Shown one piece after another: positions 3,648 to 31,979 of a stretch of DNA of 64,000 bases. The first letter of the stretch is position 1. Each line of letters begins with the position of its first letter. The stretch is taken from positions 18,337 to 82,336 of the forward strand of contig CAIQLG010000012.1 in assembly GCA_903872565.1 (NCBI GenBank), written 5' to 3'. The stretch comes from an uncultured Lentisphaerota bacterium (GTDB lineage Bacteria; Verrucomicrobiota; Lentisphaeria; Victivallales; GWF2-50-93). The notes under the pieces are model-generated. The model worked only from the letters and a program-made list of their open reading frames with translations. It searched no databases and was not told where the DNA came from. A program made the position numbers and the translations under genes.

Positions 3648-6554
3648 TTATGTGTTTAGCCCGAGCATTACAGATTTGACAGTTTTTTTCATTTCTTCAA
3701 TATCATAGGGTTTCTGAATGAAAATGAATCCTCTCTTGTGGATTGCCGCGATCCTTGATTTCTCGTCGGAATATCCGCTTGCGAGAATGACCTTTATCTC
3801 AGGATTTATCTTTTTGAATTCCTCGACAAGGTCCAGCCCATTGCAATCGGTGAGTACGACATCGCTTATCACAAGAGAAAATCTGCCCTTTTCCCTACTG
3901 AAAACTTCCCTGGCGACTTTGCCTGAATCCGCGCACACAATATTCCACCCGTCAGTTTCAAAGATTTCTTTCGCGAGATTTCTCAGTCCTGGTTCATCCT
4001 CTATGAAAAGTATTTTCACATTTTCACGAATGGTTGCAGTTGCAGTTTGTTCCGATATTACGTGAATGTCCTCATCAGCGTAATGGAATGGGAAATAGAT
4101 TTTGAAGGCTGTCCCCTTTCCCGGCGTGCTCTCAACGTCAACCCATCCTTTGTGGTGTTTGACGATTCCATAGACTACCGAGAGCCCGAGTCCCGTGCCC
4201 CTGCCCAAGCCTTTCGTGGTGAAGAACGGCTCGAAGATCCGATTTATCGTTTCCTTGTCCATCCCTGTTCCGTTGTCACAGACGGACAGTCGGACATATC
4301 TGCCCGGAACTGCGGAGATGTTGTCCGAGCATCCTTCCTCATCCACGGTGATATTTTCGGTCATTATAATCAGCGTTCCTCCATCCGGCATGGCATCATT
4401 GGCGTTCACAGCCAGGTTCATGATGATTTGCTCGATATTGGAGGGGTCACCGTTGATCGTCCAGACATCCGGGGTGGCCTTGATTTCGATTTTTATGTTC
4501 TCCGCGATGAGTCGCCTGAGAATTCTCTGCATGTTTAGGACGATGGAATTTATTTCGATAGTTTTAAATGCGACGGGCTGATTCCTGCTGAACATTAGGA
4601 TCTGCTTGGTGAGGCTTGCGGATGTGTCCGAGGCTTTTTTTATTTCGCCGAAATATTTTTTAAAAGGGCTTGAGGCGTCCGTTTTTTTAAGGCCGACCTG
4701 GGCGTATCCGCTTATGACGGTCAGAAGATTATTGAAGTCGTGGGCAATGCCGCCCGCGAGTTGTCCAATCGCCTCCATTTTCTGGGAATGTCTCAGCATT
4801 TCCTCCTTCCTGAGGCTTTCAGTTATATCCAGATCGGATCCCCTGTATCCGAGCAGATTTCCGTCACCGTCCAGGAACGGCACTCCATTTCTAGAAATCA
4901 ATTTTGTTTCACCGCTTTGGGAATTCACGGGCGTCACGAAATTTTTAAAGGCATCTTTGTTCATGAACACGTCGAGCTCTGCCCTTTTCATTTTTTCACT
5001 TTCATCTTCCGGATGGAAGTCGTAGAGGTGCATTTTTCCGACTATCTCCTCCGGTTTGTATCCGAGTATGAATTCAGCACCTTTGCTCACATAAGTGTAA
5101 AGTCCTCCGGCATCCACCTCCCATATCATTTCCCTTGTCTGTTCGGCAATCTGCTTGAATCTTTCCTTGCTCTGGTTCAGTGCCTTTTCAGAGCTGGAGA
5201 TTATGAGATTGGAAATCAACATTCTGTAGCTATACAGGAAAACCGACACGGTGACGGTCATGAAAAGGATTGTCAGGATAATCGGGATCAGCCTGTTCCG
5301 ATATATTGTGCTGTTCCATCTGGCGGCGCTCATGTCCATTCCGAGAATGGCTACAGTCTCGCCGGTTCTCGACATTTTGACGGGGGCGAAACAGCTTAGC
5401 CAAGTTCCCCACCTGTCCGTATATGGTCCGACAATTTTATATTCCCCGTCGCTGAACAAATCATTAACGCATCTCGGGGCATCGTTCCAGATCCGCCCCG
5501 GCGGAGAGCAGTCTTTTGAACCATGCGGTTCTGAATCCACCAGGAAGCTTACTCTGGAGTCATCTCCGACTTTCATCAGATATATGAATCTGTATTCGGA
5601 ACTGATTTCCTTTATTTTGGCGAGCTGTCTCTTAAGGCTCAAGTATGCCTCCGAACACAGATCCGTAGAATTTCCTTTCAGGGCGGGAATTCTTTCCATA
5701 TTTACGGCTTCAGCGACAACCCTGGCATTGGAAATGATGTCAAGTCTGAGTTCTTCATCGGTTCTCCTTCCCGAGATGTCTGTGGCAATTAGGCCTGCCA
5801 GCAGGATGCAAAAAATGATCGGCACATAAATTTTTTTAAACGGTATTCTACGGACCGTGGGCAGTAAATTGGGGGCGGGGATAGAAAAGGAGAAATAGTA
5901 CCATGTGAGACCGGCGGTCAAGGTCATCGCGCATATTCCGCTGGCGCCCTGGAGAGGCAGTCCGAAAAGTTCTCTGAACAATTCGCTGTTTATTGAACTT
6001 GCGGGGAAAAAGTTTGCCCTGGGGACAAAGACACCCATGAGGATTCCGTAGAGGAACATGGCGATGGAACTTAGAATCATGGGATATCGTTTCACATCGT
6101 TTTTTTCTCCTCTTTCCATATAGAATGCATACGATGCCGAAAAAGATCCTGTGATTAGAAAGACATATAGGCTTGCGGATTCATATCCCTTCGTACCGTC
6201 AATCCATCCGAGAGCGGAGAGGAGAAGCGGAAGAATGTATATCCATGCGCCGATACTTGTTATTTTCAGAACCGAAAGGGAACGCCTTCCGAATTCAAAG
6301 ATCGCCAACATTGAAACCGTATTGAAGAAGAACCGTACAATCTCGACATATTCCGGGAACAATGTGAATGGTTTGATGCAGATCGCCAATTCGGAGATTC
6401 CTGTTGAAAAGGTGAAAATTCCGAAGCAGAGGAACGGAAGTCTTTCAGCCTTGTTCTCGTGGAGGAAAAAACATATTATCGATAGAAAGATGAAGGAAAA
6501 TCCATACACGGCAAGCAGATAGTCCATTTGAAATTCGAATGTTACTTCCGGCAT
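3648..6554 (-). CDS. Hybrid sensor histidine kinase (multi-TM N-terminus, sensor region, PAS, HisKA, HATPase_c, C-terminal receiver)
   Basis: 968-aa ORF. Hydrophobic N-terminal ~250 aa. H-box GGIAHDFNNLLTVISGY, G-box GTGLGLSVVYGIV. Receiver ILFIEDEPGLRNL...ISDVVLTDCNG...ILASGY. Confidence 0.9.
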   Translation of the reverse strand: MPEVTFEFQMDYLLAVYGFSFIFLSIICFFLHENKAERLPFLCFGIFTFSTGISELAICIKPFTLFPEYVEIVRFFFNTVSMLAIFEFGRRSLSVLKITSIGAWIYILPLLLSALGWIDGTKGYESASLYVFLITGSFSASYAFYMERGEKNDVKRYPMILSSIAMFLYGILMGVFVPRANFFPASSINSELFRELFGLPLQGASGICAMTLTAGLTWYYFSFSIPAPNLLPTVRRIPFKKIYVPIIFCILLAGLIATDISGRRTDEELRLDIISNARVVAEAVNMERIPALKGNSTDLCSEAYLSLKRQLAKIKEISSEYRFIYLMKVGDDSRVSFLVDSEPHGSKDCSPPGRIWNDAPRCVNDLFSDGEYKIVGPYTDRWGTWLSCFAPVKMSRTGETVAILGMDMSAARWNSTIYRNRLIPIILTILFMTVTVSVFLYSYRMLISNLIISSSEKALNQSKERFKQIAEQTREMIWEVDAGGLYTYVSKGAEFILGYKPEEIVGKMHLYDFHPEDESEKMKRAELDVFMNKDAFKNFVTPVNSQSGETKLISRNGVPFLDGDGNLLGYRGSDLDITESLRKEEMLRHSQKMEAIGQLAGGIAHDFNNLLTVISGYAQVGLKKTDASSPFKKYFGEIKKASDTSASLTKQILMFSRNQPVAFKTIEINSIVLNMQRILRRLIAENIKIEIKATPDVWTINGDPSNIEQIIMNLAVNANDAMPDGGTLIIMTENITVDEEGCSDNISAVPGRYVRLSVCDNGTGMDKETINRIFEPFFTTKGLGRGTGLGLSVVYGIVKHHKGWVDVESTPGKGTAFKIYFPFHYADEDIHVISEQTATATIRENVKILFIEDEPGLRNLAKEIFETDGWNIVCADSGKVAREVFSREKGRFSLVISDVVLTDCNGLDLVEEFKKINPEIKVILASGYSDEKSRIAAIHKRGFIFIQKPYDIEEMKKTVKSVMLGLNT

Positions 6555-6565
6555 TTTATTCTCCC

Positions 6566-7885
6566 TTATTTCCAGTCATTTTCTCTGAAGAGAATGCTTC
6601 TGAATATTTTTTTTGTCAGCGAATGTCCCGATTTGAAGTCCTCGGGATTTGCCATGTAATGTGTTATGACCTTCGTCAGATCCAACATGGAGGCGAGGCG
6701 GTTGCCCGGGGTCTTGTCAAGCATTCTCGCCATTAGATCCTGTAGCCATTCCGGGATTTCCGGATTGATGCTTCTTGGTGCTGGAGGTTTTGCAGTTTTT
6801 ATTTTTTCCATGACCGCGTGAGCAGTTTTTCCCAAGAATGGCCTTTCTCCGGTAAATAGCTCATAGAGGAGGACTCCGAACGAGAAGATGTCTGACTTGG
6901 TGTCGCCTTGTGTTTCACCTCTAAGTATTTCCGGCGCCATGTAGGATGGCGATCCCCTGAGGGTGTCTGTCAAAGTGAGTGACGGGTCGAGAATTTTCGC
7001 TATGCCGAAATCTGTGATTTTCACGCGGATGTCTTCGGTCAGAAGGACATTTTCAGGCTTCAGGTCGCGGTGGAGTATCTTTTTTGAATGGATGTAGTCA
7101 AGTCCCGAAGCAATCTGAAGAGTCACTGAAAGTTTGTCCTCGTCTGTAAGATTTGCATTCTTTATGTAACTGGAGAGTGGTGCTCCGTGGACATATTCCA
7201 TGACGATATACGGCAGATCGTCGCCTTCAAAACCCCCCACGTCAAAAAGTTTGACCACATACGCATTGTCGAGAGACTTGAGGATCTCGGCTTCCCTGTT
7301 GAATCTTTTTTTTGCCAGCCTGTCAATTTCGGATCCTGAGTTGTTCAGAATCTTCATTGCGAAATAAGAGTCGTTTTTTTCAACGAGGAACACAGTTCCC
7401 GCGCCACCTGAGCCGATGGACTTGATCACGGAATATCCGTTTCTGATTTTTCCGACATTGCTGCCTTTCGTCTTTATCCGGCTCCCGTTTTTACGATCAA
7501 GGATAAGTCGGTTAATTTTTTTTTGCAGGTCATCGAGATTGAGTGGCTTGGGAAGATAGTCATAAGCTCCCTCCTTAATGGCTGTTACAGCCGCTTTGAA
7601 ATCAGGAACTCCTGTGACGAGGATGAAATCCGTCTTATTGTCCTTGCTTCTTACAGCTCTTAGAAGTTCGAGTCCAGACATATCCGGCATATTTATGTCG
7701 GAGATTACAAGATCGAAGTGCTTTGAGCTGAGTTTTTTCAGCGCCTCAGATGCCGATATGGCGGTATCAACCGCAAATCCGCTGTCGGCAAGGAAGAGTT
7801 CGAGCACCTGGAGGATTTCGTTCTGGTCATCCACAACAAGGATGGAAAGAAGAGGCAGGACTATTTTTTTTTTTTGCAGTCGCAT
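6566..7885 (-). CDS. Response-regulator receiver fused to Hanks-type Ser/Thr protein kinase (REC-STK 1)
   Basis: Receiver ILVVDDQNEIL...LVISDINMPDMSG...LPKPL. Kinase motifs GSGGAGTVF, AMK, HRDLKPENVLL, DFGIAK, SPSYMAPE. The start overlaps the stop of the upstream kinase across an A12 tract. Confidence 0.9.
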   Translation of the reverse strand: MRLQKKKIVLPLLSILVVDDQNEILQVLELFLADSGFAVDTAISASEALKKLSSKHFDLVISDINMPDMSGLELLRAVRSKDNKTDFILVTGVPDFKAAVTAIKEGAYDYLPKPLNLDDLQKKINRLILDRKNGSRIKTKGSNVGKIRNGYSVIKSIGSGGAGTVFLVEKNDSYFAMKILNNSGSEIDRLAKKRFNREAEILKSLDNAYVVKLFDVGGFEGDDLPYIVMEYVHGAPLSSYIKNANLTDEDKLSVTLQIASGLDYIHSKKILHRDLKPENVLLTEDIRVKITDFGIAKILDPSLTLTDTLRGSPSYMAPEILRGETQGDTKSDIFSFGVLLYELFTGERPFLGKTAHAVMEKIKTAKPPAPRSINPEIPEWLQDLMARMLDKTPGNRLASMLDLTKVITHYMANPEDFKSGHSLTKKIFRSILFRENDWK

Positions 7886-9486
7886 AGCACTTTGCGGAGC
7901 GTTGCGGACAATCCTTCTTCAGTGAAGGGTTTTTCAATGAAATTGATGCCCTTGTCGAGAATTCCACTGTTGGCCATCACATGGGATGTGTAGCCTGACA
8001 TGAATAGGCATTTGATTTTTGGGCGCATTGCGGTGATTCTCTTTCCGAGATCCTGTCCGTTCATTCCCGGAAGCACCACATCTGTCATCAGAAGATGAAT
8101 GTCTCCCTCGTCCTCCTTCGCCAGTTTGATTGCTTTGGCCGGGCTGTCCGCAGCCAGCACTGCATAGCCCATATGTTCAAGCTGCATTTTTGTAAGACAC
8201 AGCAAGGATGCCTCATCCTCTACCAGAAGGATAGTTTCATTTCCTCTGAGTATTTCGGAACTTCCAGGTGTCTCATCGGTTTCCTTATTTTCCGATTTGT
8301 ACCGCGGAAGATATATCTTGAATGTTGACCCCAGCCCAATTTCACTGTAAACATTGATGCATCCGTTGTTCTGCTTTACGATGCCGAAGACAGTGGAAAG
8401 ACCAAGGCCGGTTCCATTTTCGGTTTTTTTGGTGGTGAAAAACGGATCAAACAGGTGGGATATGGTCTCCTTGTCCATCCCGCATCCATTGTCTCCGACC
8501 GAGAGCACGACATATTCTCCTGGGACAAACTCGATGTGCGCCTTGCAATAGGCCGGGTCCAACTTGGAGTTGTAAGTCTCAATTGTCACCTTGCCGCCGT
8601 CGGCGACTGCATCACGGGCGTTGATGAGAAGGTTGGTAAGAATCTGATCAAGATGGGAGGAGTCCATCTTTACTGTCCAAAGTTTGGCGGCGGGTTTCCA
8701 TTGCAGTTCAATATTTTCACCAAGAAGCCTGTGCAGCATATTCAGCATGCTTTCAATGCTGTCGGCAATGTTCAGCTCTTTCATCGAGATGGGCTGTTTG
8801 CGGGCGAATGCGAGAAGCTGGTGGGTGAGGTCTGCGGAGCGTTGCCCTGCCTTTCTGATTTCCATCACACTGTCATACATCGGATTTGAAGAGGCAATCT
8901 CCTTTAGCAGCATCTGCGAATGTCCGTTGATGACAGCGAGCATATTGTTGAAATCGTGCGCGATACCGCCTGCCAGCTGACCTACAGCTTCCATCTTCTG
9001 AGCCTGACGAAGCTGAGATTCCAGATTTTCACGCTCCGCATTAAATGTCCGCTCCCATTCCTCCTTCGCTTTGAGCAGGCGCTCCATGGCCATATGGCGT
9101 CCCAGGGCGTAACACAGGACGCGCGCCAACAACAGCCCCGACACCTGGTCGCTCATGTGGCCTTTCATAATGTAGTCCTGCGCGCCTTCCTGTATTGCCG
9201 CCAGCCCCATTCTCTCATCGTCATTTCCGGTCAGCACGACAATTGGGATATCGGTGTCGGCTCTCCTCATTGCTCTCAAGGTTTCCAGCCCACTGCTGTC
9301 CGGCAGTTCCAAATTCAGAAGGATAATGTAGAATGGACCTTGCCTGGCGAGTTCAATGGCATCCGAAAGCCGCTGCACACATTTGATTTCAAACCTCGAC
9401 TCGCCGTCTGTTGCCAGCAACTCCCGTATCAAGCGGACATCGGCCGGGTTGTTTTCAACCAGCAGGACGTGTAACCTCTCAGTCAT
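7861..9486 (-). CDS. Hybrid histidine kinase with N- and C-terminal receiver domains (REC-HisKA-HATPase-REC)
   Basis: VLLVENNPADVRL...LLNLELPDSSG; H-box GGIAHDFNNMLAVINGH; GTGLGLSTVFGIV; second receiver ILLVEDEASL...LMTDVVLPGMNG. SD AAGGAG lies upstream of ATG 9486. Confidence 0.9.
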   Translation of the reverse strand: MTERLHVLLVENNPADVRLIRELLATDGESRFEIKCVQRLSDAIELARQGPFYIILLNLELPDSSGLETLRAMRRADTDIPIVVLTGNDDERMGLAAIQEGAQDYIMKGHMSDQVSGLLLARVLCYALGRHMAMERLLKAKEEWERTFNAERENLESQLRQAQKMEAVGQLAGGIAHDFNNMLAVINGHSQMLLKEIASSNPMYDSVMEIRKAGQRSADLTHQLLAFARKQPISMKELNIADSIESMLNMLHRLLGENIELQWKPAAKLWTVKMDSSHLDQILTNLLINARDAVADGGKVTIETYNSKLDPAYCKAHIEFVPGEYVVLSVGDNGCGMDKETISHLFDPFFTTKKTENGTGLGLSTVFGIVKQNNGCINVYSEIGLGSTFKIYLPRYKSENKETDETPGSSEILRGNETILLVEDEASLLCLTKMQLEHMGYAVLAADSPAKAIKLAKEDEGDIHLLMTDVVLPGMNGQDLGKRITAMRPKIKCLFMSGYTSHVMANSGILDKGINFIEKPFTEEGLSATLRKVLCDCKKKK

Positions 9487-9564
9487 CTATTTTGCTCCTT
9501 AAACTTAACCGGCTCCACCGGAGCTCAATATTTTTTGACGGGATTTACTGGATTATCAGGATAT

Positions 9565-9828
9565 TTAAAATATCAATATTCCAATCCTGTCCCAATTACA
9601 ATTACGGTCGGGGCTGCGAGGCTCGCACCTTTTTTTCAAGAGCTTTTCCATTCTCGCCCATTCAATTGCCATCCACTTGTGTTCACACTTATATTCTTTC
9701 ATCATAGTCTGAGTTTTTTCCGACAGTGCCGACACGTCATTACGGATATCACAGATTGATTTTGTCCGGGCATCATGCGCCGTCTTGATGTTTTCCGCGA
9801 TTTTGCATATTCTGCTAATTGTTTTCAT
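9565..9828 (-). CDS. Small helical hypothetical protein, possibly a short relative of the two coiled-coil proteins upstream
   Basis: The ORF-track entry 9565..9858 starts at TTG. An internal ATG at 9828 is preceded by AAGGA. The product is charged and helical (MKTISRICKIAENIKTAHDARTK...). No recognisable family. Confidence 0.35.
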   Translation of the reverse strand: MKTISRICKIAENIKTAHDARTKSICDIRNDVSALSEKTQTMMKEYKCEHKWMAIEWARMEKLLKKRCEPRSPDRNCNWDRIGILIF

Positions 9829-9863
9829 AATTTTCCTTGTCCATTTTTTTAACCCCAATATTA

Positions 9864-10550
9864 TCAGAAGGACATCGGAGCCAGTCCCGCAGCTTCGATC
9901 TTCATATTCTGTCCTTCCTTCCTTTTATCAGCCATGGTAGCGCTTAAGTCACGCCAGTGGGAAGCGCCCTGTTTTATCTCTTCCCTGCTCTGCATTCTTT
10001 TCGACCGGAGATTTTTCAGCATTATTTTCAGGTCCTGTATCCGTACCGCCGTTCCCTTCTCCAGGAGGCTCTGTAGCAATTCGGCTGCCATCTTGCGGTC
10101 GCGGTTGAAATCCGTCAGCATGTCACGAACCTCTTCTTCCCGTGATTTCTGGCTGGCCTGAATGTCCGTGATTATCTTTCGGAACTCATTTATTCTTTCC
10201 GATTCTCCTTCAAGGTGATCAGTCTTGTGCTTCTCGATGTTTTCCCTGATGGTCTTGGCGGCTTCCTTCTGTTCATCAAGATATGCCTTCAACAGATTTC
10301 TGGTTTCGCCTTCCCTTGATTCCTGTGATTCCAGTATCTCCTTCATCATAATATCAAAATCTTTTTTCCGCAGTGAGTCCTCCTTGGCCAGAGTTTCCCT
10401 CAGCTGTGTGCTCATGGCGCTTCGTTTTTCCCTGAAATCATCGAGCATCTGATGGGTATTGTCAATGATTGTGCAGACGGCCGAAATTCTGGATTCGTAG
10501 GAGGAGACTATTTCCTCCGTAAGTTTTCTCATATCTTCCGCATTGTTCAT
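9864..10550 (-). CDS. Coiled-coil protein of unknown function (paralog A), immediately downstream of gvpA genes
   Basis: 228 aa, rich in E/K/R/Q heptad-like sequence. AGGAG SD. N-terminus MNNAEDMRKLTEEIVSSYESRISAV matches its neighbour. Shared internal block YLDEQKEAAKTIR-N-I--HK-DH. Confidence 0.65.
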   Translation of the reverse strand: MNNAEDMRKLTEEIVSSYESRISAVCTIIDNTHQMLDDFREKRSAMSTQLRETLAKEDSLRKKDFDIMMKEILESQESREGETRNLLKAYLDEQKEAAKTIRENIEKHKTDHLEGESERINEFRKIITDIQASQKSREEEVRDMLTDFNRDRKMAAELLQSLLEKGTAVRIQDLKIMLKNLRSKRMQSREEIKQGASHWRDLSATMADKRKEGQNMKIEAAGLAPMSF

Positions 10551-10621
10551 AATGCCTACTCCTGTTTATAAAAAAATTGCCCGCTCTGTTTCGTGGGAAT
10601 TATCATTTTAAAAGCCCAGCG

Positions 10622-11347
10622 TCACGATCCCGTCTTCTCTATCTGTTTAAAATAATCCAGCATTATTATGGGAGATACTGTGAGAATTCTCCGCTGTGCC
10701 ATGTACATGTTCTGTCTGTCCGTGGCGATTAGTCCACGCCATTGGGATATCGTGTGCTTGAACACTTCCCACCATCCTTCGGAATGATGGCTCTTATGTC
10801 TTACCATTATTGTCGGACATTGGGTCTTGTCATCAGTTTCCTTCACCATGAAGATTTGAAGAAATTCAATTGTCATCTTATGTTTATTGTAGATAGTTTT
10901 CAGCATGTCGCGCAGTTCAATGTCGTGCTGTTTCTCGCTGACTCTCTGACTGGCATGGACATCGGCGATCCAGCTTCGGAATTCATTTATTCTTGCCGCA
11001 TCCACCTCAACGTGATCAATTTTGTGTCTTCCAATGTTTTTTCTGATAGTCTTAGCGGCTTCCTTCTGTTCATCGAGATAGATATTCAATAAAATTCTTG
11101 TTTCGTTTTCAATAGCCTCCTGGGGGCCAAGTATCTCCGTCATCATCCTGTCAAACTCTTTTTCGCAAAATGATTTTTCACGGGCGAACGTTTTCTTGAG
11201 CTGCATGCCCATAACACTGCGCTTTTCACTGAACCCGTCCAGTATCTGACGTGTATTGTCAACCATTGCACAGGCTGCCGAAACTCTGGATTCGCAGGAG
11301 GAGATTAATTCAGCCATCAGTTTTCTCATGTCTTCAGCATTGCTCAT
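10622..11347 (-). CDS. Coiled-coil protein of unknown function (paralog B)
   Basis: I trimmed the start to ATG 11347 (MSNAEDMRKLMAELISSCESRVSAA), which aligns with paralog A and has a GGGAG SD. The ORF-track start 11413 adds 22 unaligned residues. Confidence 0.65.
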   Translation of the reverse strand: MSNAEDMRKLMAELISSCESRVSAACAMVDNTRQILDGFSEKRSVMGMQLKKTFAREKSFCEKEFDRMMTEILGPQEAIENETRILLNIYLDEQKEAAKTIRKNIGRHKIDHVEVDAARINEFRSWIADVHASQRVSEKQHDIELRDMLKTIYNKHKMTIEFLQIFMVKETDDKTQCPTIMVRHKSHHSEGWWEVFKHTISQWRGLIATDRQNMYMAQRRILTVSPIIMLDYFKQIEKTGS

Positions 11348-11445
11348 AAAGATTGCTCCCGTTCTTAGGATATGGATTACTGGCGAACCATGCTTGGCAA
11401 CCGTCGGCTGCAAGGACGACTCGGCAGGTACCCATGTTTTGGTTT

Positions 11446-11652
11446 TTAGGCCGCTGTAGCTGTCAGACCGATAGCTTCAGCATACTTCAGATACGTTTCG
11501 ACTGACGCGACCACAACTCTGGCTTCAACTGCCAGAAGTTCTATCCCGACGAGGGATACCCTGACCCATGCGTCAACCACGATACCTTTGTCAAGTATGC
11601 GGTCCACAACTTCAACAAGACTCGAACTGCCGATTGTTTTTTCCACTGCCAT
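11446..11652 (-). CDS. gvpA: Gas vesicle structural protein GvpA (copy 1)
   Basis: The 68-aa product [68 protein letters not shown] is a textbook GvpA sequence. AGGAG SD. Confidence 0.95.
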
Positions 11653-11747
11653 TGTAGTAACTCCTGTTTTTGATTCCGATCCCCAGTTTTATTTTAGAGG
11701 ACAAGAACCGGTTTATTAATTCGACTCAACTAAACGATTTAACTTAC

Positions 11748-11954
11748 TTACGCTGCCGTAGCTGTCAGACCGATAGCTTCAGCATACTTCAGATACGTTT
11801 CGACCGACGCGACCACTACTCTAGCTTCAACTGCGAGAAGCTCGATACCAACCAGTGATACCCTGACCCATGCGTCAACAACGATACCCTTGTCCAATAT
11901 GCGGTCAACAACTTCGACCAGACTGGAACTTCCGATTGTTTTCTCCACTGCCAT
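11748..11954 (-). CDS. gvpA: Gas vesicle structural protein GvpA (copy 2, product identical to copy 1)
   Basis: Same 68-aa product. The ORF-track start 11963 is a GTG inside the SD GGGGGTGA, so ATG 11954 is preferred. Confidence 0.95.
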
Positions 11955-12017
11955 TTTACTCACCCCCTTTATTGCTGTTTAGTTTTGACTTTTCTGACTG
12001 TGACTGGGACTAGTATT

Positions 12018-12033
12018 AGCATGAAGGATGCCA
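12018..12033 (-). promoter_or_regulatory. Candidate sigma54 (-24/-12) promoter upstream of gvpA copy 2
   Basis: The minus strand reads TGGCATCCTTCATGCT (GG-N10-GC spacing), about 65 nt upstream of ATG 11954. Near-identical elements occur at three other sites in the window. Confidence 0.5.
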
Positions 12034-12192
12034 AAGGCTATAGCTGACTTTTAAAATAATTTCTATCATTTTAGTTATAAACGAGTTACATCTGCATTAA
12101 AAAAATAGACTGCTGGTAAATCAGATTTTATTGCATCGTTTTTTTGGGAATAATATGTGACAAAAACGGACAGAATTGAACGGAATTGCCAC

Positions 12193-12430
12193 AGTGGGGA
12201 ATGGGGAAGGGGAAAGAATGTGAGTTATGGGAAGCATGGGAGTTATTTTTTTGAGACCTTTGAGGGCAGGGGAAATATAGCTCTCATAATTCAATGTTGC
12301 TAAGTTAAGCCAAGTAACGCGGGATACCACCCCGCGACTTTCCTCGGGGAGATTCCCCGAGTTACTCGAATTCAGGCTTAACTTAGCAACATTCCTCTCA
12401 TAATTCACATAATTTCCATAGCTCCCATAA
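12193..12430. repeat. Inverted arrays of 9-nt GGGA(A/G)TTAT-type units, interrupted by a palindromic insertion
   Basis: 12193..12250 reads GTGGGGAATGGGGAAGGGGAAAGAATGTGAGTTATGGGAAGCATGGGAGTTAT. The reverse complement of 12385..12430 reads GGGAGCTATGGAAATTATGTGAATTATGAGAGG. The same unit type is seen at 18257..18305 and 3444..3487. Confidence 0.65.
12293..12393. repeat. 101-bp MITE-like palindromic element with 19-bp perfect terminal inverted repeats
   Basis: AATGTTGCTAAGTTAAGCC (12293..12311) is the exact reverse complement of 12375..12393. Two internal GC hairpins (CGCGGG..CCCGCG, CTCGGGG..CCCCGAG). Flanked by the direct repeat CTCTCATAATTC at 12281..12292 and 12395..12406. Confidence 0.7.
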
Positions 12431-12440
12431 ACGGTGATCA

Positions 12441-13769
12441 TCAGCTCCAAGTTTTGTGGAAGATTTCCTTAATGAAACTTTTCTTGTAGTTATTTTCGTA
12501 TTTGGTTTTTTCATACCTGTCGAGTTCCTGAATGATTTCGGAGACACTGCCATATCTGTTGTCAGGTAATTTCTCGAGCATTTTGCCGACGATATCACGG
12601 AGCATCATCGGCAACTTGTTGTTTAATTTCATTGGGTCTTCAGGTTTTGACTTCATGATGCTCTCTTTTATTCCGGAGAGGCCTGCGCCCGCAAAAGGCC
12701 TTTTCCCTGCGAGGATTTCATAGCTTATCACACCGAGGGAGAAAATGTCGGCTCTCTCGTCGATCTTGTTTATATTGTCGAAGCTTTCAGGCGCCATGTA
12801 TGTCGGCGAACCTAGCATTGCATTGGTCATCGTCAGTTCGGAGTCAAACACGCGAGCGACTCCGAAGTCTATGAGTTTGCATTCATCTTCTCTGGTTATA
12901 ATGACATTCTGAGGTTTGATGTCCCTGTGAAGTACCCCATAACTATGAACAATTTGAAGAGCTGATGCAATCTTTCTCATGATTGAAACAGCCTGTCCAG
13001 TCTGTATATGAGTTGATTTCATGTACTCATCGAGGGTGTTTCCTGGAAGATACTCCATTATTATGTAAGGTATCTCTCCCTGTTCCGAGAGTCCGTATTC
13101 AACTAATTTTATGATATTGGGATGGCTGATGCTTGAAATGATTTTTGCTTCTCTGAAAAATCTTTTGACTTTTTCAATCGAGAATGTTTTCGATCCGAAC
13201 ACCTTCATTGCATAATACACTTTTTCCTTTTCAACCAGGAAGACTTTGCAGATGCTTCCCGAACCTATTTCCTTAATGACCTTATAACCCGCAGGCGGGT
13301 AAAGAGTAATTCCGGCAAGAGTTTCCTTATTGTAAAAAAGAGCTTTGTCAAGGATGTCCTTGAATTTCTTGAGGTTAAGTGGTTTAGTGAGGACATCGAG
13401 GGCGCCTCCTATGAGTGCATCAAGGGCGGTGTCAGGAGCATTCTCAAGATCCTTCGCGTCGCAGACTATGATCATTTTTGTGCTCTGCGAGTTTTCTGTG
13501 CAGAAATGCAGAAGATCCATGGCTGTTGATTTCCCCTGGACGTTGTAATCGCAGAAGACAAGCGCGTAGTAGAAGTTCTTGAATAGCTTTAAGGCCTTTT
13601 CCGATCTGTCGCACGTCTGAATTTCATATCCGAGATGCCCCAGCTCCCTTTCAAGAAGCTGTACGATAAGATCCTCGTTTCCAATAACGAGTATCCTGGG
13701 GACAAAAGGGTCGCCCTTGTTTTCCAGTATCCTTGTCTTGACATTCGGATCGTCTTCTTCGCTGATCAT
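12441..13769 (-). CDS. Degenerate receiver domain fused to Hanks-type Ser/Thr protein kinase (REC-STK 2)
   Basis: Kinase motifs GSGSICKVF, AMK, HRDIKPQNVII, DFGVAR, SPTYMAPE. The N-terminal receiver-like fold keeps the phospho-acceptor position (LVFCDYN) and LTKPL, but the acidic pair is replaced (VIGNED). Confidence 0.85.
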   Translation of the reverse strand: MISEEDDPNVKTRILENKGDPFVPRILVIGNEDLIVQLLERELGHLGYEIQTCDRSEKALKLFKNFYYALVFCDYNVQGKSTAMDLLHFCTENSQSTKMIIVCDAKDLENAPDTALDALIGGALDVLTKPLNLKKFKDILDKALFYNKETLAGITLYPPAGYKVIKEIGSGSICKVFLVEKEKVYYAMKVFGSKTFSIEKVKRFFREAKIISSISHPNIIKLVEYGLSEQGEIPYIIMEYLPGNTLDEYMKSTHIQTGQAVSIMRKIASALQIVHSYGVLHRDIKPQNVIITREDECKLIDFGVARVFDSELTMTNAMLGSPTYMAPESFDNINKIDERADIFSLGVISYEILAGKRPFAGAGLSGIKESIMKSKPEDPMKLNNKLPMMLRDIVGKMLEKLPDNRYGSVSEIIQELDRYEKTKYENNYKKSFIKEIFHKTWS

Positions 13770-13831
13770 TTAGTGTCTTTATTTTAAAGTTCTATGTCTT
13801 GAGCGTATGCAAAAGTTAAATTTGTGGTTCA

Positions 13832-13963
13832 GGAAGTCAGGAGTCAGAATTCAGAATGAAAACAACTCAATTGCTTCTCAATTATTTTCTCTTTTGTTTT
13901 TGATATTATTCTGACTACTGTCTCCTGTCTTCTGACTTCTCTTGGGTTGCGGGCAAAGCCCGC
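13832..13963. repeat. Intergenic imperfect palindrome plus short GC hairpin between two REC-STK genes
   Basis: GGAAGTCAGGAGTCAGAAT (13832..13850) pairs imperfectly with ATTCTGACTACTGTCTCCTGTCTTCTGACTTC (13908..13939). Hairpin GCGGGC-aaa-GCCCGC at 13949..13963 sits just 3' of the stop at 13971 and has no U-tract. Confidence 0.5.
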
Positions 13964-13970
13964 CTATATA

Positions 13971-15293
13971 TCAACTCCATGGATTATCAATGAGCAGCAT
14001 GCTTTTCAGGAATTTTGATGTTATTGTATCATTCACAGGCGCCTTGTCATCCTCGTTTTTCTGATGGAATTCTATTGATTCAATGATTTTTCCGGCCGTC
14101 GGATAACGATTCTCCGGATTTTTCGTCATCATCTTTGCGATGGTATTCTGAAGCCAGGAGGGAATATCAGCATTGATTTTTTTTGGTTCGAGGGGCTTCC
14201 TTGTCTTTATCGCCTCCATTACCTGGAATACATTATCGCCTGGAAAGGCGCGCCGGGATGTCACGAGTTCATAGCAGAGCGATCCGAGAGAAAATATGTC
14301 GGACCTATTGTCTAGTGTCTTGGCGGAATCGAAGCTTTCGGGAGCCATATAATGGGGAGATCCCATCACATCATCCATCATCGTGAGCGATGATTCCTGC
14401 GTTTTAGAGATTCCGAAGTCGCTTATCTTCACCTGCGAGTTTTGTGTTATCATTATGTTGTCGGGCTTGATATCTCTGTGGATGAAGCCCAGACTGTGGA
14501 TATAATCAAGCACCGATGCAAGTTGCTTGATTATGTGAATGCGCAACTTGATGTCCATCGCAGTGTTTGCAATATAGTCCGAAAGCCGAGATCCATCTAT
14601 ATATTCCATGATTATGAAAGGAGTGCCGACATCCGGCAGGATACCATACTTATATACCTTGACAATGTTCCGATGATCCATTTCCTCCAAGATTTTAAAT
14701 TCGCGGAGAAATCTTTTCACGGATATTTCATGCTTTTCAGGGGAGTCTTTCTTCTTCATTATCTTCATCGCGTAACTGGCGCAATTTTTCTCGACTAGCA
14801 GAACTAGGCCGCTATTCCCTGAGCCAAGTGATTTCAATATCTTGTATTTTCCCGTCTGGAAAAAAACGGAGTCAAGGATCTGCTCCTCGGAGCTTTTCAC
14901 CTCGCTTCCCTGTTCCGCAAGTGCCGAATTTATTTTAGCGGCCAGATTATTCAGATCGATAGGCTTGGCTATATAATCTAAAGCGCCTTCCTTGATCGAA
15001 CTGACTGCATCTTTAAGATCCGGATGCCCAGTCATCAATATTATATGCATCGCAGGGCAGTGTTTTCTGCAGTAAGTAAGGAATTCAAGCCCGTTCATCC
15101 CCGCCATCCGGACATCAACCAGTGCAAGGCTAAATACGGTGTCTGCCATAAGTCCAAGCGCATCACTGCAATTTCCCGCAGTTGAAACCGAAAAAGATTC
15201 TGAAAGTGCGGTGTTCAGGAATTCACGAACATTATCCTCGTCATCAACAACGAGGATATTTTTCTTGACATTTGTTATCTCAGGATATAACAT
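13971..15293 (-). CDS. Response-regulator receiver fused to Hanks-type Ser/Thr protein kinase (REC-STK 3)
   Basis: Receiver ILVVDDEDNVREF...LALVDVRMAGMNG...IAKPI. Kinase GSGNSGLVL, AMK, HRDIKPDNIMI, DFGISK, SPHYMAPE. GAGGGAG SD. Confidence 0.9.
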   Translation of the reverse strand: MLYPEITNVKKNILVVDDEDNVREFLNTALSESFSVSTAGNCSDALGLMADTVFSLALVDVRMAGMNGLEFLTYCRKHCPAMHIILMTGHPDLKDAVSSIKEGALDYIAKPIDLNNLAAKINSALAEQGSEVKSSEEQILDSVFFQTGKYKILKSLGSGNSGLVLLVEKNCASYAMKIMKKKDSPEKHEISVKRFLREFKILEEMDHRNIVKVYKYGILPDVGTPFIIMEYIDGSRLSDYIANTAMDIKLRIHIIKQLASVLDYIHSLGFIHRDIKPDNIMITQNSQVKISDFGISKTQESSLTMMDDVMGSPHYMAPESFDSAKTLDNRSDIFSLGSLCYELVTSRRAFPGDNVFQVMEAIKTRKPLEPKKINADIPSWLQNTIAKMMTKNPENRYPTAGKIIESIEFHQKNEDDKAPVNDTITSKFLKSMLLIDNPWS

Positions 15294-15333
15294 CTGACTC
15301 CCTCTTCCGTATCAGATAATAAAGGAAAAAGGC

Positions 15334-15568
15334 ACACGCTAAAGCCGTGAACTCCAGCAAATTATTATCTTGACATAAGCATTCACTAAATAAAAATGGC
15401 ACTAAGTCAAGGGTTTCTTCTGAAGTAACTCGGGTCTATTGACCCGAGAATCGCGGGTCAGATAGACCCGCGCTACTCTGGGATGAGCCTTAACTTGGTG
15501 GCATTCCACTAAATAACGCATAGTTCACTCCTTTGAAACTGCCGTTGGAGTTCACGGCTTTAGCGTGT
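15334..15568. repeat. 235-bp palindromic element with 23-bp perfect terminal inverted repeats, carrying a second nested MITE-like element (15395..15505)
   Basis: ACACGCTAAAGCCGTGAACTCCA (15334..15356) is the exact reverse complement of 15546..15568. The inner element has imperfect ends (AATGGCACTAAGTCAAGGG / GCCTTAACTTGGTGGCATT). It carries the same two GC hairpins as 12293..12393 in opposite orientation. It is flanked by CACTAAATAA at 15384..15393 and 15507..15516. Confidence 0.7.
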
Positions 15569-15660
15569 TCTTTTCTTGGCAGTTTCATATTGACAAAACT
15601 GCGGACACCGCAGTAAAACGCTGAATACCTACGCTTCGTGTGTCTGTGAGATAATACTTT

Positions 15661-16413
15661 TTAACTTGCTGCAATTTTCAGATTGACAAAATTGAACGGA
15701 GGCACCTCACACACATATTTAAGTTTTATTCTCTTACCGTATTTTGTGTCAATATCGTTGACTTTCCTGTAAAACGCCTCCTCCTTGTCCACTTCCACAA
15801 GGAACGCGGCATTTATAATCATCCTCACGCCGAAAGCATTGTTGATTTTCACTTCTACGGCGAGAGGGGAAAGAATCCTCAATATCTCCTTCTTTAGAAT
15901 TTCAACTTCCGCCCGCAGCGCGGCCTCGACCATTTCCCCTATCTTCATCCGCTGTGGATAGGTTTTCTCTGGAGGCTTGGCAATTATAGACATTTTTAAT
16001 TTATTGATGTCCTTATGCTTTTCCAGGATATAGCTGTATATGGCTTCCTCAATGAAAACCGCTTTCACTCCCAGCTCTTTTTTATTGTCGAGCTTTTTCA
16101 GCAGTTCTTTGAATTTGACATTTTCTTTCCTCAATATTTCCAGTATCTCGACATCGGTTGCGATTATGCCGAATCTGACAGGAAGCACGCCTGCAAATTC
16201 CTTCATCACTACATCGATCACCTTTGCGTGAGCCAGCATATTTTCCCGGCTGGCGGTAATTTTGGCGATGGGATGACTGCTTGCGACCATTCTCATATCC
16301 TCATGGCCGATGGTTGAAACCTCATCTCCCCTGCCACCCACCCCGATTGGACCGAAACTTCTATCATGGATTGAAGGGATAATGCAATAAATATACTTTC
16401 CGTCCTGTGCCAT
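15661..16413 (-). CDS. gvpF: Gas vesicle assembly protein, GvpF/GvpL family
   Basis: 250 aa. The N-terminus MAQDGKYIYCIIPS...FGPIGVGG...V..I....MRMVAS and overall layout are typical of the GvpL_GvpF family. Located in a gvpA context. Confidence 0.85.
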   Translation of the reverse strand: MAQDGKYIYCIIPSIHDRSFGPIGVGGRGDEVSTIGHEDMRMVASSHPIAKITASRENMLAHAKVIDVVMKEFAGVLPVRFGIIATDVEILEILRKENVKFKELLKKLDNKKELGVKAVFIEEAIYSYILEKHKDINKLKMSIIAKPPEKTYPQRMKIGEMVEAALRAEVEILKKEILRILSPLAVEVKINNAFGVRMIINAAFLVEVDKEEAFYRKVNDIDTKYGKRIKLKYVCEVPPFNFVNLKIAAS

Positions 16414-16538: not shown

Positions 16539-17255
16539 TCAGCAGACAATCACTACGCTGTTGACAGAACAGAACACATTTGGCTCGAACCTTATGGCAT
16601 TAGGATCCGGTATCCATTGGCCGTCAACAATGAACTTGTATTGGTATTCTCCGGGTGCAAGTACCATCAAGGCCTGGAATTCCCTTCCCTGTCTTGTCAT
16701 CGGCTCCGGGATCCAGTTGTTAAAATCGCCAGCCAGGCAGACCTCTCCAGCTTCCGATTCGGCAGGCCAACTGAATTTGTGAGTTTTCCCAGTCTTTTTT
16801 TTCGTCTCGTAGCCGGACTGACATTTGCCCACGGAGCACTCCTTAGCCGTCGCCTTCTTCTGCGTCTTTTTCTTCCCCATCATTCCAACCTCCTTTTCCA
16901 CTTTAGCTGTTTGTATCATATTCTCGGATAATGACATAATCTTGTTAGATTTGACATCTTCTCCTATTTCATCACATAGAAGTCTCTTGAAAAACATCTT
17001 GATGGTGCTGATAGCCCTGGATGCGTCGGCACCAATCGCGGAGATGGTGAATATGGCACCTCCCGGGATGCCAAGCGTGATGATGTCCAGCAGGCTCTTG
17101 GCATCCGCCTTTCTATCATTGTATTCGATAAACACATCGGATTCGAACTGTCTTGACACCTTCACAAGCAGTGAAACAGGACGCATATGCATGGCGACAA
17201 TCTTGTCAAGGATTACCTCAATACTACATGTCGGGCAATTATACGGCAAGCCCAT
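16539..17255 (-). CDS. Fusion of HPr-like phosphocarrier domain and AMPK-beta/CBM48-type glycogen-binding domain
   Basis: I trimmed the start to ATG 17255 (strong GGAAGGAGAG SD). HPr-like VAMHMRPVSLLVK (His15 position) and NDRKADAKSLLDIITLG (Ser46 position). The C-terminus FSWPAESEAGEVCLAGDFNNWIPEPMTRQGREFQALMVLAPGEYQYKFIVDGQWIPDPNA resembles the AMPK beta-subunit glycogen-binding module. Lys-rich linker. Confidence 0.75.
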   Translation of the reverse strand: MGLPYNCPTCSIEVILDKIVAMHMRPVSLLVKVSRQFESDVFIEYNDRKADAKSLLDIITLGIPGGAIFTISAIGADASRAISTIKMFFKRLLCDEIGEDVKSNKIMSLSENMIQTAKVEKEVGMMGKKKTQKKATAKECSVGKCQSGYETKKKTGKTHKFSWPAESEAGEVCLAGDFNNWIPEPMTRQGREFQALMVLAPGEYQYKFIVDGQWIPDPNAIRFEPNVFCSVNSVVIVC

Positions 17256-17356: not shown

Positions 17357-17713
17357 CTATATGCCACCCAATGAACATTTGGCATGTCCGGCCTCAAGAA
17401 GCGCCTCCCAAATTTTCATCATTTCAGGGGGGAGGCATTTGCTCATGATTCTTTCGGGATCCACCGGATCAATGAAATGAGCAAGTTCGTGTGCAATAAC
17501 AGGCACCAATCCAAGCCGATATTTAGGTTCAAGAATGCTACTATTGCTGTAATGCAGGACTACCTTGGTAGTTTTTCCAAAGAGAGCACGTCCCATTACT
17601 CCCTCGAAAGAATCATCGTACACGACTTCAAAGGAGATACCCTGAAGTTCCGGGAAATATTTATTCCGCACGGACTCCATAAAAGCAACAACTTCGAGTT
17701 CATTATCAGTCAC
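17357..17713 (-). CDS. Small putative zinc metallopeptidase-like protein (HExxH)
   Basis: 118 aa, GTG start with GAGAGGTGA SD. Single VIAHELAHFIDP motif. No further family recognised. Confidence 0.55.
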   Translation of the reverse strand: MTDNELEVVAFMESVRNKYFPELQGISFEVVYDDSFEGVMGRALFGKTTKVVLHYSNSSILEPKYRLGLVPVIAHELAHFIDPVDPERIMSKCLPPEMMKIWEALLEAGHAKCSLGGI

Positions 17714-17818: not shown

Positions 17819-17977
17819 TCAGTCCTCTGCTGTTGCGAGTGCCACAGCTTCAGCATACTCCAGATAGATTTCGACCGAGGGCACAACAATTCTGGCCTCA
17901 ACCTCGATACCTTTGTCCATCACGCGATCCATAGCTTCGACCAGGCTTGGACTTCCGCTTGTTTTTTCCGCTGTCAT
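17819..17977 (-). CDS. 52-aa GvpA-like protein lacking the central beta-hairpin (in-frame 16-residue gap relative to GvpA)
   Basis: Below the ORF-track length cutoff; I translated it by hand: [52 protein letters not shown]. It aligns with GvpA residues 1-24 and 41-68. SD GGGGAATACC and a sigma54-like element lie upstream. Confidence 0.6.
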
Positions 17978-18074: not shown

Positions 18075-18090
18075 AGCAGGATTGATGCCA
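18075..18090 (-). promoter_or_regulatory. Candidate sigma54 (-24/-12) promoter upstream of the short gvpA-like ORF
   Basis: The minus strand reads TGGCATCAATCCTGCT, preceded by CAGCTATA as at the gvpA copy 2 element. About 100 nt upstream of ATG 17977. Confidence 0.5.
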
Positions 18091-18256: not shown

Positions 18257-18393
18257 GGGAGGGGAAAGAATGGGAATTATGGGAGGAACGGGAATTATGG
18301 GAATTATAATTTTGTGTCCCTAGATTTGCTTGGCGGAAGTCTTTCCGCACAAGCAAATCTATAAGTTTCCACAATTGGGAGAATTGTGGAAAC
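18257..18393. repeat. G3-N6 periodic array followed by a 41-nt nested hairpin and a 12-bp-stem hairpin
   Basis: GGGAGGGGAAAGAATGGGAATTATGGGAGGAACGGGAATTATGGG (18257..18301). TAGATTTGCTTG-GCGGAAGTCTTTCCGC-ACAAGCAAATCTA (18321..18361). GTTTCCACAATT-gggag-AATTGTGGAAAC (18365..18393). Confidence 0.75.
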
Positions 18394-18551
18394 GTCATCT
18401 GAATATTTTTCTATGCATGAACCGCATACCCGCATCCTTTTTACTCAAAAGATGGCGCGGAATGAAAAATGCGGCGGCATGGAGCAAGTGTCCAAGCTCC
18501 ATGTCAATGTCAGAATAAATATGTTTTATGGCCGGGATGCCGTCCGTGATC

Positions 18552-19073
18552 CTATGCGGTCAGCGGCAGACCTTTATATGTCCATCTGTACGGTTTCGCC
18601 ATAGTCCTGTTGAAATAGGAAATGAACATTTCCATCTTATCCCCGAGATCGCCTTCATGCCCGGTCAATTCCGCAACCATTCGGACAAGAGTTTCGGACA
18701 TATGGGTGTTGAGCTGGTCGCTGATGAATATCCATTGGTCTTTCCGCCTGTCTCCTATTGTAGAGGCTATATGCTCTGCGAAATCCTGTTCGTTCCGCGT
18801 CTCGCCAATATGATGACGGACTATTTTTCCTGTGGCTACTTCAAAAGAGGGTATCAAGGAAAGTGTGCCATGCCGCATGTATTCGAACTCGATCTTCTCG
18901 GGATGACCGGCTATCATCGGCTTCGTCGGCGCAACCCGCTCCAGCGCCTGGATGCCGGTCTTTTCATCTGTCGAGATCAAATGCGTGCCAGCATCATGAA
19001 GCTCGGAGGCATGTGAATAAAGGCCGCAGATCTCCGTCTCGCGGTCATGGCCGAGTTCGTCAAATGGGCAGGC
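18552..19073 (-). mobile_element. IS630-family transposase relic (pseudogene: N-terminal HTH region missing, internal deletion removing the end of the DDE domain)
   Basis: ...FDELGHDRETEICGLYSH...LISTDEKTGIQALER...EFEYMRHGTLSL...FISDQLNTHMSE... jumps directly to ...FISYFNRTMAKPYRWTYKG. The open frame extends upstream of the ORF-track TTG start to a stop at 19074..19076. No inverted repeats of an intact IS were recognised. Confidence 0.75.
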
Positions 19074-31976: not shown

Positions 31977-31979
31977 AAA

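Follow-up and report, generated by a model that had tools for sequence, protein, structure and literature searches.

The stretch of 64,000 nucleotides analyzed here (the window; contig CAIQLG010000012.1, positions 18,337 to 82,336, from an uncultured Lentisphaerota bacterium) encodes three proteins, STK1, STK2 and STK3, in which an N-terminal receiver domain is joined to a Hanks-type Ser/Thr kinase. The best explanation of their sequences is that they are cytoplasmic response regulators with a Ser/Thr kinase output that is predicted to be catalytically competent. STK1 is encoded among histidine kinases, and the STK3-STK2 pair is positioned between the gas-vesicle genes gvpF and gvpA. The favored reading, to which we give an even chance, is that a His-Asp phosphorelay would turn the kinases on and that STK3 and STK2 would act on targets related to gas vesicles.

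Receiver and kinase domains

A first-pass annotation of this DNA had placed three receiver-Ser/Thr kinase open-reading frames (ORFs) on it, and all three are found at exactly those coordinates, on the minus strand and with the same translations (Table 1). The hidden Markov models of Pfam and NCBIfam were run on the window proteins, and in each of the three they find a Response_reg domain at the N-terminus with a complete Pkinase domain behind it. The Pfam E-values for Pkinase are 4.9e-58 for STK1, 2.4e-53 for STK2 and 2.0e-54 for STK3. Those for Response_reg are 4.5e-29, 1.7e-9 and 4.5e-24, respectively, and the scores are 101.3, 38.2 and 85.2 against a cut-off of 30.2 bits, which STK2 just exceeds.

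The kinase domains had been described as complete, and the alignment agrees with this: the G-loop, the Lys of the A-M-K motif, the αC Glu, HRD(L/I)KPxN, DFG and (A)PE are present in all three, as are the subdomain IX Asp and the subdomain XI Arg. The sole deviation is at the third Gly of the G-loop in STK2, and all three domains are predicted to be active. Conservation was counted over 109 aligned sequences, the three window proteins and 106 homologs of 400–520 residues. The kinase Lys, αC Glu, HRD, Asn, DFG, PE, IX Asp and XI Arg are fully or almost fully conserved, and a Thr of the activation loop (T304 in the L-T-x-T motif of STK1) is found in 106 of the 109 members. The D-D-D-T-K pocket of the receiver is present in STK1, in STK3 and in more than 95% of the family, with 103–108 of the 109 sequences conforming at the individual positions. 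STK1 and STK3 thus carry the residue set of a putatively functional receiver.

AlphaFold2 (AF2) models of STK1 and STK2, built on the family alignments, have a mean predicted local distance difference test (pLDDT) score of 84.4 and 83.2, respectively, with both domains confidently modeled. The two receivers show the alternation of strands and helices of the (β/α)5 fold at a pLDDT of 85–97. The only segments modeled with low confidence are the N-terminus, the linker between the domains, the activation loop and the C-terminal tail. In a Foldseek comparison with the PDB only the kinase domain was matched, best by PknB from Staphylococcus aureus and from Mycobacterium tuberculosis (target-normalized TM-scores of 0.83–0.90), and no solved structure with the receiver-kinase arrangement was matched. 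A scan for transmembrane (TM) segments predicted none in any of the three proteins.

STK2 has an unusual receiver. The loss of its acidic pair, noted in the first-pass annotation, is borne out together with the pseudo-receiver assignment, as the sequence reads ILVIGNED in place of the ILVVDD(Q/E) of STK1 and STK3. Alignment of the pocket residues gives a change of DD to GN and of T to C, with the phospho-acceptor Asp and the Lys retained, and the residue set of a phosphorylatable receiver is therefore incomplete. Among the 109 sequences only STK2 has Gly in place of the first acidic residue and only STK2 has Cys for the conserved Thr, and it shares the Asn at the second acidic position with a single other member. 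The receiver of the AF2 model has a pLDDT of 85–96, that is, the domain is degenerate yet still predicted to fold. The loss of the acid pair suggests that STK2 is unable to bind the catalytic metal normally and is not switched in the usual manner through Asp phosphorylation. Degenerate receivers also occur in distant relatives of STK2, namely P0321 (IVGTEE, with the acceptor Asp replaced by Pro), P0325 (IVGDED) and P0334 (IVGDAK), and therefore a small pseudo-receiver branch of the family exists.

The kinase domain of STK2 carries a further change found in no other of the 109 sequences, a Cys at the third Gly of the G-loop. This change, the absence from the receiver of the acid pair for metal binding and of the conserved Thr, and the fact that each replacement is unique or nearly so would fit an explanation in which one or more copies, STK2 above all, are non-catalytic scaffolds, being pseudokinases and/or pseudo-receivers. 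The Lys, Glu, HRD, Asn, DFG and APE of STK2 are nevertheless all intact, and its AF2 model is confident for both domains. The third Gly of the G-loop is dispensable in many active kinases. A purely structural role is considered very improbable.

The three window proteins share 33–41% pairwise identity. A search with STK1 finds over 2,600 proteins with E ≤ 1e-20, and the top ~110 are nearly all Response_reg+Pkinase proteins of 420–460 residues. Named members come from Lentisphaeria, Victivallales, Kiritimatiellota and one Chitinispirillaceae genome, and their annotations go no further than “protein kinase” or “hypothetical”. This family of ~440-residue receiver-kinase proteins is common in the metagenome genomes of Lentisphaerota and Kiritimatiellota. 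Two members, P0007 and P0022, bear the locus tags of one metagenome-assembled genome (MAG), and therefore several paralogs occur per genome. For STK1, P0003 (57% identity) and P0004 (48%) are closer than either paralog in the window. STK3 has an ortholog, P0073, at 77.5% identity, followed by relatives at ~46%, and the nearest relatives of STK2 in a search of 1.84 billion representatives reach only 42–44%. The low mutual identity, together with the closer relatives of STK1 and STK3 outside the window, indicates that the three are old paralogs and not the product of a local triplication. The annotation was thus correct in calling them paralogous, with the correction that they are not recent duplicates.

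The similar C-terminal ends of the three proteins (...FRENDWK, ...FHKTWS and ...LIDNPWS) are as the annotation quoted them, and the trait is family-wide: in 79 of the 109 members the chain ends with a Trp followed by 0–2 residues. A basic amphipathic stretch precedes the terminal Trp, as in GITRKLLRTLLLRKPTWD. The hydrophobic moments of the tails are within the range computed for the membrane-targeting helices of MinD and FtsA, a comparison that serves as a lead only. The basic amphipathic tail helix with its terminal Trp is probably a means of holding the kinases at a surface, either the membrane or a partner protein.

STK1 and the neighboring histidine kinases

HK541, STK1 and HK968 form a tight operon, in which HK541 and STK1 overlap by 25 nt and STK1 is separated from HK968 by 11 nt. 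The first-pass annotation counted three adjacent hybrid histidine kinases. This is correct for HK541 and HK968, and the third, HK3, is a sensor kinase with its C-terminus off the window. HK3 corresponds to a stop-free frame on the minus strand with several predicted TM segments. Its C-terminal half is 48–55% identical to the CHASE hybrid kinases of L098 and L099, two more distantly related gvp clusters of Lentisphaerota whose GvpF is 62–63% identical to that of the window and whose available sequence ends inside the CHASE kinase (REC and Hpt are listed by Pfam for that of L099).

The surroundings of STK1-like genes were compared in four independent organisms besides the window (L001; L004–L006; L007; L010). 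A histidine kinase encoded on the same strand adjoins the STK1-like gene in the window and in all four of them (L001, L004/5, L007 and L010). In L001, a MAG from a sulfidic cave, the STK1-like gene (48% identity) is followed by a 971-residue PAS hybrid kinase, 43% identical to HK968, and then by a MASE1 hybrid kinase, the core of which is 46% identical to HK541. L007 has a CTP synthase gene, then an STK of 57% identity and then an HK968 ortholog of 62%. In L010 the histidine kinase, an HK968 ortholog of 43%, comes before the STK, and in L004–L006 two histidine kinases precede the STK. The STK1 and HK968 module recurs beside genes for CTP synthase or an SNF transporter. As judged from these sequences, STK1 with its PAS hybrid histidine kinase is a portable, putative phosphorelay unit that is kept beside unrelated genes (L001, L007 and L010).

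Among the available evidence, the adjacency of a histidine kinase in every case sampled argues best for a receiver that truly accepts phosphate. It makes plausible the input by a His-Asp phosphorelay that the annotation had proposed.

Another hybrid kinase, with the domains HAMP-PAS-HisKA-HATPase-REC-REC, is encoded 28 kb away at 46223-49411 on the plus strand. Its kinase core is 66.5% identical to that of the L099 CHASE kinase, closer than HK3, and by this similarity it may be a displaced ortholog of the gvp-cluster kinase.

STK3, STK2 and the gas-vesicle genes

Contigs of the same species were recovered through an exact match to the GvpF of the window, and one of them is 70 kb long. Its first part encodes Volactin, GvpF, GvpG, GvpF, a GvpA-like protein, GvpF, GvpK and a σ54 activator response regulator. 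An intact IS630-type transposase, the 52-residue gvpA remnant, the 118-aa protein, an HPr-CBM48 fusion, GvpF, STK3 and STK2 come next, and the last part contains two gvpA genes, cc241, cc228, an 87-aa protein, HK541, STK1 and HK968. This gene order places gvp genes on both sides of the kinases in the sister strain.

The second species considered is a related organism with a GvpF 72% identical to that of the window. Here a σ54 activator, Volactin, a CHASE hybrid kinase with an Hpt domain and a REC protein are followed by a block encoding a 51-aa protein, the 118-aa protein, GvpF and two STKs of 440 and 446 residues, in which the gaps measure 15, 98 and 7 nt. The kinases again have gvp genes on both sides. 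What is conserved is therefore the order gvpF-STK-STK, but not HPr-CBM48, which is not found in this operon. The 118-aa protein, with its HELAH motif, is conserved in the second species, where its gene directly precedes gvpF, and is a candidate for a new gas-vesicle accessory protein.

L098 and L099 carry GvpN, HSP20, ArsA, CDC48, several GvpF/L, GvpG, GvpK, a σ54 activator, Volactin and the CHASE kinase. A σ54 activator response regulator is found in every related gvp cluster seen. A tblastn search of the 64 kb with the L099 proteins gave no homolog of GvpN, GvpG, GvpK, Volactin, HSP20, ArsA or CDC48, nor is the gene of the σ54 activator in the window by the same method. The gene for Volactin, an actin-like family (PF25216), is a constant member of these Lentisphaerota gvp clusters (L098:1311-2354, L099:16051-17094). 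To our knowledge, an actin homolog is not a regular component of gvp clusters.

The operon that ends with STK3 and STK2 begins with the gvpA remnant. The regions upstream of gvpA and of the remnant are ~73% identical over ~260 nt and, when aligned, share GG-N10-GC elements in register, an imperfect palindrome (CTGTGGCAA...TTTGTCaCATAT) and GGGAaTTATGGGA repeats. A σ54-type promoter is suggested by the position of these elements, by their duplication and by the σ54 activators of all related clusters. The remnant appears to be a decayed gvpA copy with a retained promoter, now heading the operon (promoter duplicate at 17978-18330), and it may owe its retention to a role as leader or promoter source for gvpF and the STKs. 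By the same sequence similarity, the STK3-STK2 operon probably uses a duplicated gvpA-type σ54 promoter.

The strongest argument for a gas-vesicle role is that STK3 and STK2 have a conserved placement and are probably transcribed together with gvpF from a promoter of the gvpA type. All of the support for the link is gene order, that is, synteny in two related species. Several observations weigh against the favored reading, the strongest being that most of the wider family lacks a link to gvp genes. All four STK1-like contexts sampled in other organisms are free of gvp genes, and the conserved linkage concerns the STK3-STK2 pair only, in the species of the window and one relative. The available sequence of L098 and L099 stops short of the site at which kinases would be expected. 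Matches to a σ54-like pattern are no commoner across the window than chance would give, and with an insertion sequence (IS) remnant and an element resembling a miniature inverted-repeat transposable element (MITE) in the locus, some of the adjacency could reflect rearrangement. As to the relay, no Hpt domain (PF01627), which hybrid kinases normally need, is found in the window proteins scanned, and neither a PP2C-type phosphatase nor an FHA protein is encoded near the kinases. In related gvp clusters the large CHASE kinases do carry an Hpt and, by analogy with these homologs, that of the relay may sit in the part of HK3 beyond the window. A wide occurrence of the trio without gvp linkage, which the annotation took as counting against its proposal, is half borne out: the family is widespread without gvp genes, and only the STK3-STK2 pair shows the linkage, in the two species.

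The same observations can be read in another way, with the STKs as general-purpose signaling kinases that have no gas-vesicle-specific role and belong to a signaling island joined to the gvp genes by duplication and IS rearrangement. The abundance of the family in Lentisphaerota and Kiritimatiellota with several paralogs in a genome (P0007 and P0022 in the same MAG), the four gvp-free contexts, the module of STK1 and HK968 beside CTP synthase or SNF transporter genes, and the IS and MITE elements in the locus are all in line with this, and segmental duplication would seem to have given rise to the gvpA remnant and the extra gvpF. Such an origin is, however, at odds with the gvpF-STK-STK order being kept with short gaps in a species with a GvpF of only 72% identity, with the gvp genes flanking the kinases on either side there and in the sister strain, and with the copy of the gvpA promoter region at the operon head. 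It is regarded as possible but somewhat unlikely.

In a further alternative, the kinases target the signaling machinery, either the NtrC-type σ54 activator or the histidine kinases, and thereby tune gvp transcription. Hanks kinases phosphorylate response regulators in other bacteria, and both the activator present in every related gvp cluster seen and the σ54-type promoter candidate at gvpA would agree with such a function. The activator gene is, however, outside the window, and such a function would account neither for the conserved tail nor for a pseudo-receiver kinase as partner. We judge this alternative quite unlikely. The regulation of transcription by bacterial Ser/Thr kinases is a subject of two reviews (PMC4601284, PMC12189002).

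HPr-CBM48 is a fusion of HPr with a carbohydrate-binding module (CBM). The HPr part scores 57.6 bits with TIGR01003 (cut-off 47.9), and an ungapped alignment with a PDB chain (query residues 21–85, chain residues 13–77) equates H23 with His15 and S54 with Ser46. The best match of the CBM part is the CBM of AMPK β, and the sugar-binding FNNW, YKF and DGQW segments are kept, with the equivalents of β1 W100, K126 and W133. The fusion is rare, with eight fusions or fragments (P0160–P0166 and P0168) among 5.8 billion clusters. Its homologs are encoded beside KaiC-KaiB-KaiB and a PAS kinase (L094) or beside PAS kinases (L095–L097), not beside these STKs. The annotation had regarded HPr-CBM48 as an obvious candidate substrate. 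The Ser46 site is indeed kept, but the absence of the gene from the operon of the second species and the different neighbors of its homologs speak against this, and for the former reason it was also rejected as a core partner of STK3 and STK2. By its domains it looks like a signaling accessory that could report the state of glycogen or of the phosphotransferase system (PTS).

An AMPK-like heterotrimer was rejected as well: the locus differs from AMPK in having no γ-type (CBS) subunit and no β-type C-terminal scaffold domain, the CBM is fused to HPr, and the fusion protein is not conserved with the kinases. In L094:10001-13550, from the sample of the sister strain, a 65% identical paralog of HPr-CBM48 lies beside KaiC, two KaiB and a large PAS kinase, an unusual pairing of a glycogen-binding type of HPr with a Kai-type timer. 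A stand-alone CBM48 protein is encoded two genes from the STK in L004–L006.

The gvpA genes are followed by those for cc241, cc228 and a small helical protein. An ortholog of cc228 (67% identity) starts the L099 gvp cluster (L099:2-634), which makes cc228 a genuine gvp-cluster protein, and cc228 and cc241 may be functional analogs of GvpC. The small helical protein is 47% identical over 47 residues to part of a 198-aa protein that heads the L099 gvp cluster (tblastn). An ORF of 106–109 residues called in the structured spacer between STK2 and gvpA, with 106 residues in sister contigs, belongs to no protein family and is probably not a gene, and the spacer itself could be an insulator or terminator, or a repeat element.

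The spacer between gvpF and STK3 is 367 nt long in the window and 98 nt in the second species. The MITE-like element within it has raised metagenome depth and loose contig ends at 15528/15574, and by its sequence it looks like a MITE inserted in a former spacer of ~100 nt. In the window the gvp and signaling locus ends at the IS630-type element, which is multi-copy, with a depth in lake metagenomes 10–20-fold above that of its flanks and with contigs breaking at its ends. In the sister contig ERZ1426827 this position is occupied by an intact 363-residue transposase followed by the remaining gvp cluster. The halves of the gvp cluster may be truly separated at this element in the window, or this may be an assembly join. 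Beyond it the genes are those of glycan and sugar metabolism, on the opposite strand. Among the ORFs scanned in 30909-36514, an unusual run of three URO-D-family paralogs (30909-31976, 33164-34270 and 35516-36514, plus strand) sits among sugar dehydrogenase and BNR/sialidase-like genes (24899-26296, 19601-20335).

DNA of the window is present in lake-water and freshwater metagenomes. The lake metatranscriptome contigs that were checked contain short gvpA contigs only, at high depth in one case, and the kinases are absent from them, which is uninformative. A profile search of genome contigs with generic kinase motifs gave, among the matches listed, 80 loci, all with unrelated kinases and none from Lentisphaerota. 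A scan of metagenome contigs with STK3 alone found one true match, L101, an identical 2.4-kb fragment, the remainder being generic kinases.

Table 1. Features of the STK and gas-vesicle locus (coordinates in the window; aa, residues; MFE, minimum free energy)
Feature	Coordinates	Strand	Description
HK3	1..3354	-	Membrane sensor kinase: dCache_3, 2 PAS, HisKA, HATPase_c; C-terminus beyond window start
HK968	3648..6554	-	PAS-HisKA-HATPase_c-REC hybrid kinase; six predicted TM segments
STK1	6566..7885	-	Receiver + Hanks kinase, 439 aa; pocket D19 D20 D63 T91 K113; tail ...ILFRENDWK
HK541	7861..9486	-	Cytoplasmic REC-HisKA-HATPase_c-REC hybrid kinase; no TM segment predicted
Small helical protein	9565..9858	-	97-aa ORF; 87 aa in sister contigs
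cc228	9864..10550	-	Charged, repeat-like (repeat family D1), in gvpA operon; no Pfam/NCBIfam family
cc241	10622..11347	-	Paralog of cc228, 51-54% identical; highly charged; no family match
gvpA copy 2	11446..11652	-	68 aa; NCBIfam NF006874, 131.6 bits (cut-off 100); Pfam Gas_vesicle
gvpA copy 1	11748..11954	-	68 aa from ATG at 11954; protein identical to copy 2
σ54-type -24/-12 candidate	12019..12033	-	TGGCATCCTTCATGC; ~65 nt upstream of gvpA copy 1
Structured STK2-gvpA spacer	12120..12440	-	MFE -105.9 kcal/mol, z = -6.9; long hairpin 12293-12393 (inverted repeat I5)
STK2	12441..13769	-	Pseudo-receiver + Hanks kinase, 442 aa; G-loop GSGSIC
STK3	13971..15293	-	Receiver + Hanks kinase, 440 aa; canonical receiver
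MITE-like insertion	15328..15574	.	247 nt; 29-nt inverted ends, 93% complementary; in gvpF-STK3 spacer
gvpF	15661..16413	-	GvpL/GvpF family, 250 aa; Pfam E = 2.5e-54, also NCBIfam
HPr-CBM48	16539..17255	-	HPr + AMPK1_CBM, 238 aa from internal Met
118-aa protein	17357..17713	-	HELAH (HExxH, metalloprotease-like) motif; no Pfam/NCBIfam match
gvpA remnant	17819..17977	-	52 aa, core internally deleted; kept in sister strains; 51 aa in second species
Second σ54-type -24/-12 candidate	18076..18090	-	TGGCATCAATCCTGC; upstream of gvpA remnant
IS630-type element	18317..19253	.	Internally deleted; 45-nt terminal inverted repeats; truncated DDE_3 ORF

Proposed mechanism and comparison with known systems

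The favored reading divides the locus into two modules. The first, HK541-STK1-HK968 with HK3, would be a self-contained phosphorelay unit that also occurs elsewhere in Lentisphaerota, in which the membrane sensors HK968 and HK3 and the cytoplasmic relay HK541 pass phosphate to Asp63 of STK1, either directly or through an Hpt outside the window. The second would comprise STK3 and STK2 as the last genes of an operon formed by the gvpA remnant, the 118-aa protein, (HPr-CBM48), gvpF, STK3 and STK2. Under the duplicated σ54 gvpA promoter these kinases would be made together with the gas-vesicle proteins, and the histidine kinases of the first module would feed the STK3 receiver too.

Receiver phosphorylation commonly drives dimerization, and kinases of the PknB type are activated through dimerization and trans-autophosphorylation of the activation-loop Thr. 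It is proposed that phosphorylation of the receiver Asp would likewise lead to dimerization of the STKs and then to trans-autophosphorylation of the Thr in their L-T-x-T loop; the conservation of this motif and the flexible linker fit the model. STK2 might act as a heterodimer partner, a substrate or a downstream kinase of STK3, which is speculative. The most economical guesses for the targets are GvpF, cc228/cc241 or the σ54 activator of the cluster. In a more specific version, buoyancy would be controlled after translation, with relay-switched STK3 phosphorylating GvpF or cc228/cc241 and with HPr-CBM48 reporting the state of carbohydrate ballast or energy. As a whole, this version is considered unlikely.

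The REC-Pkinase architecture is listed in censuses of response regulators, and the fusion described here is a variant of that catalogued architecture. The literature searched contained no experimentally characterized bacterial receiver-kinase fusion. STK1 and STK3 are similar to response regulators with enzymatic output, in which a receiver is combined with GGDEF, HD-GYP, PP2C or methylesterase domains: an N-terminal D-D-D-T-K receiver is joined by a linker to an enzyme, and the genes adjoin histidine kinases. The STK family differs by its Hanks-type kinase output and by the amphipathic, Trp-ended tail.

The best match in sequence and fold is to the kinases of the PknB/Stk1/StkP type, which share all catalytic motifs and the Thr-bearing activation loop with the STKs. 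Unlike these, the STKs have no TM segment and no PASTA or other extracellular sensor, and their input would come via the fused receiver. STK2 resembles the pseudo-receivers and aspartate-less receiver (ALR) domains (PMC4395418) in having lost residues of Mg-dependent phosphotransfer with the fold kept, and P0321 lacks the acceptor Asp as well. STK2 differs from them in keeping the acceptor Asp and the Lys, so that it is not aspartate-less, and in having a protein kinase as its output.

The known regulators of gas vesicles are GvrA, GvrB and GvrC of Serratia (an NtrC-type activator and kinase-like proteins) and the haloarchaeal GvpD and GvpE. Like these systems, the Lentisphaerota clusters contain regulators of the two-component and σ54 types within the gvp cluster, namely the σ54 activator and the large hybrid kinase. 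We know of no Ser/Thr kinase among the Gvr or GvpD/GvpE regulators, and no natural link between a Ser/Thr kinase and gas vesicles was found in the literature searched. An engineered gas-vesicle reporter that responds to a kinase exists (PMC13602928).

If the link to the gvp genes is merely positional, the locus is an ordinary signaling island in a signaling-rich phylum. If it is real, this would be the first natural case in which a Ser/Thr kinase controls buoyancy organelles, a matter of interest for the ecology of plankton in stratified lakes and for the use of gas vesicles as acoustic reporters. Control after translation, if true, would be a parallel in nature to the engineered gas vesicles that respond to a kinase, and it would give a receiver-kinase response regulator a defined function for the first time. 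In a receiver-kinase fusion, a single polypeptide brings together the two principal phosphorylation systems of bacteria. The STK family is compact (~440 residues), with candidates for the cognate kinases, a natural pseudo-receiver variant and a conserved tail, and is therefore a good system for studying how Asp phosphorylation switches a Hanks kinase.

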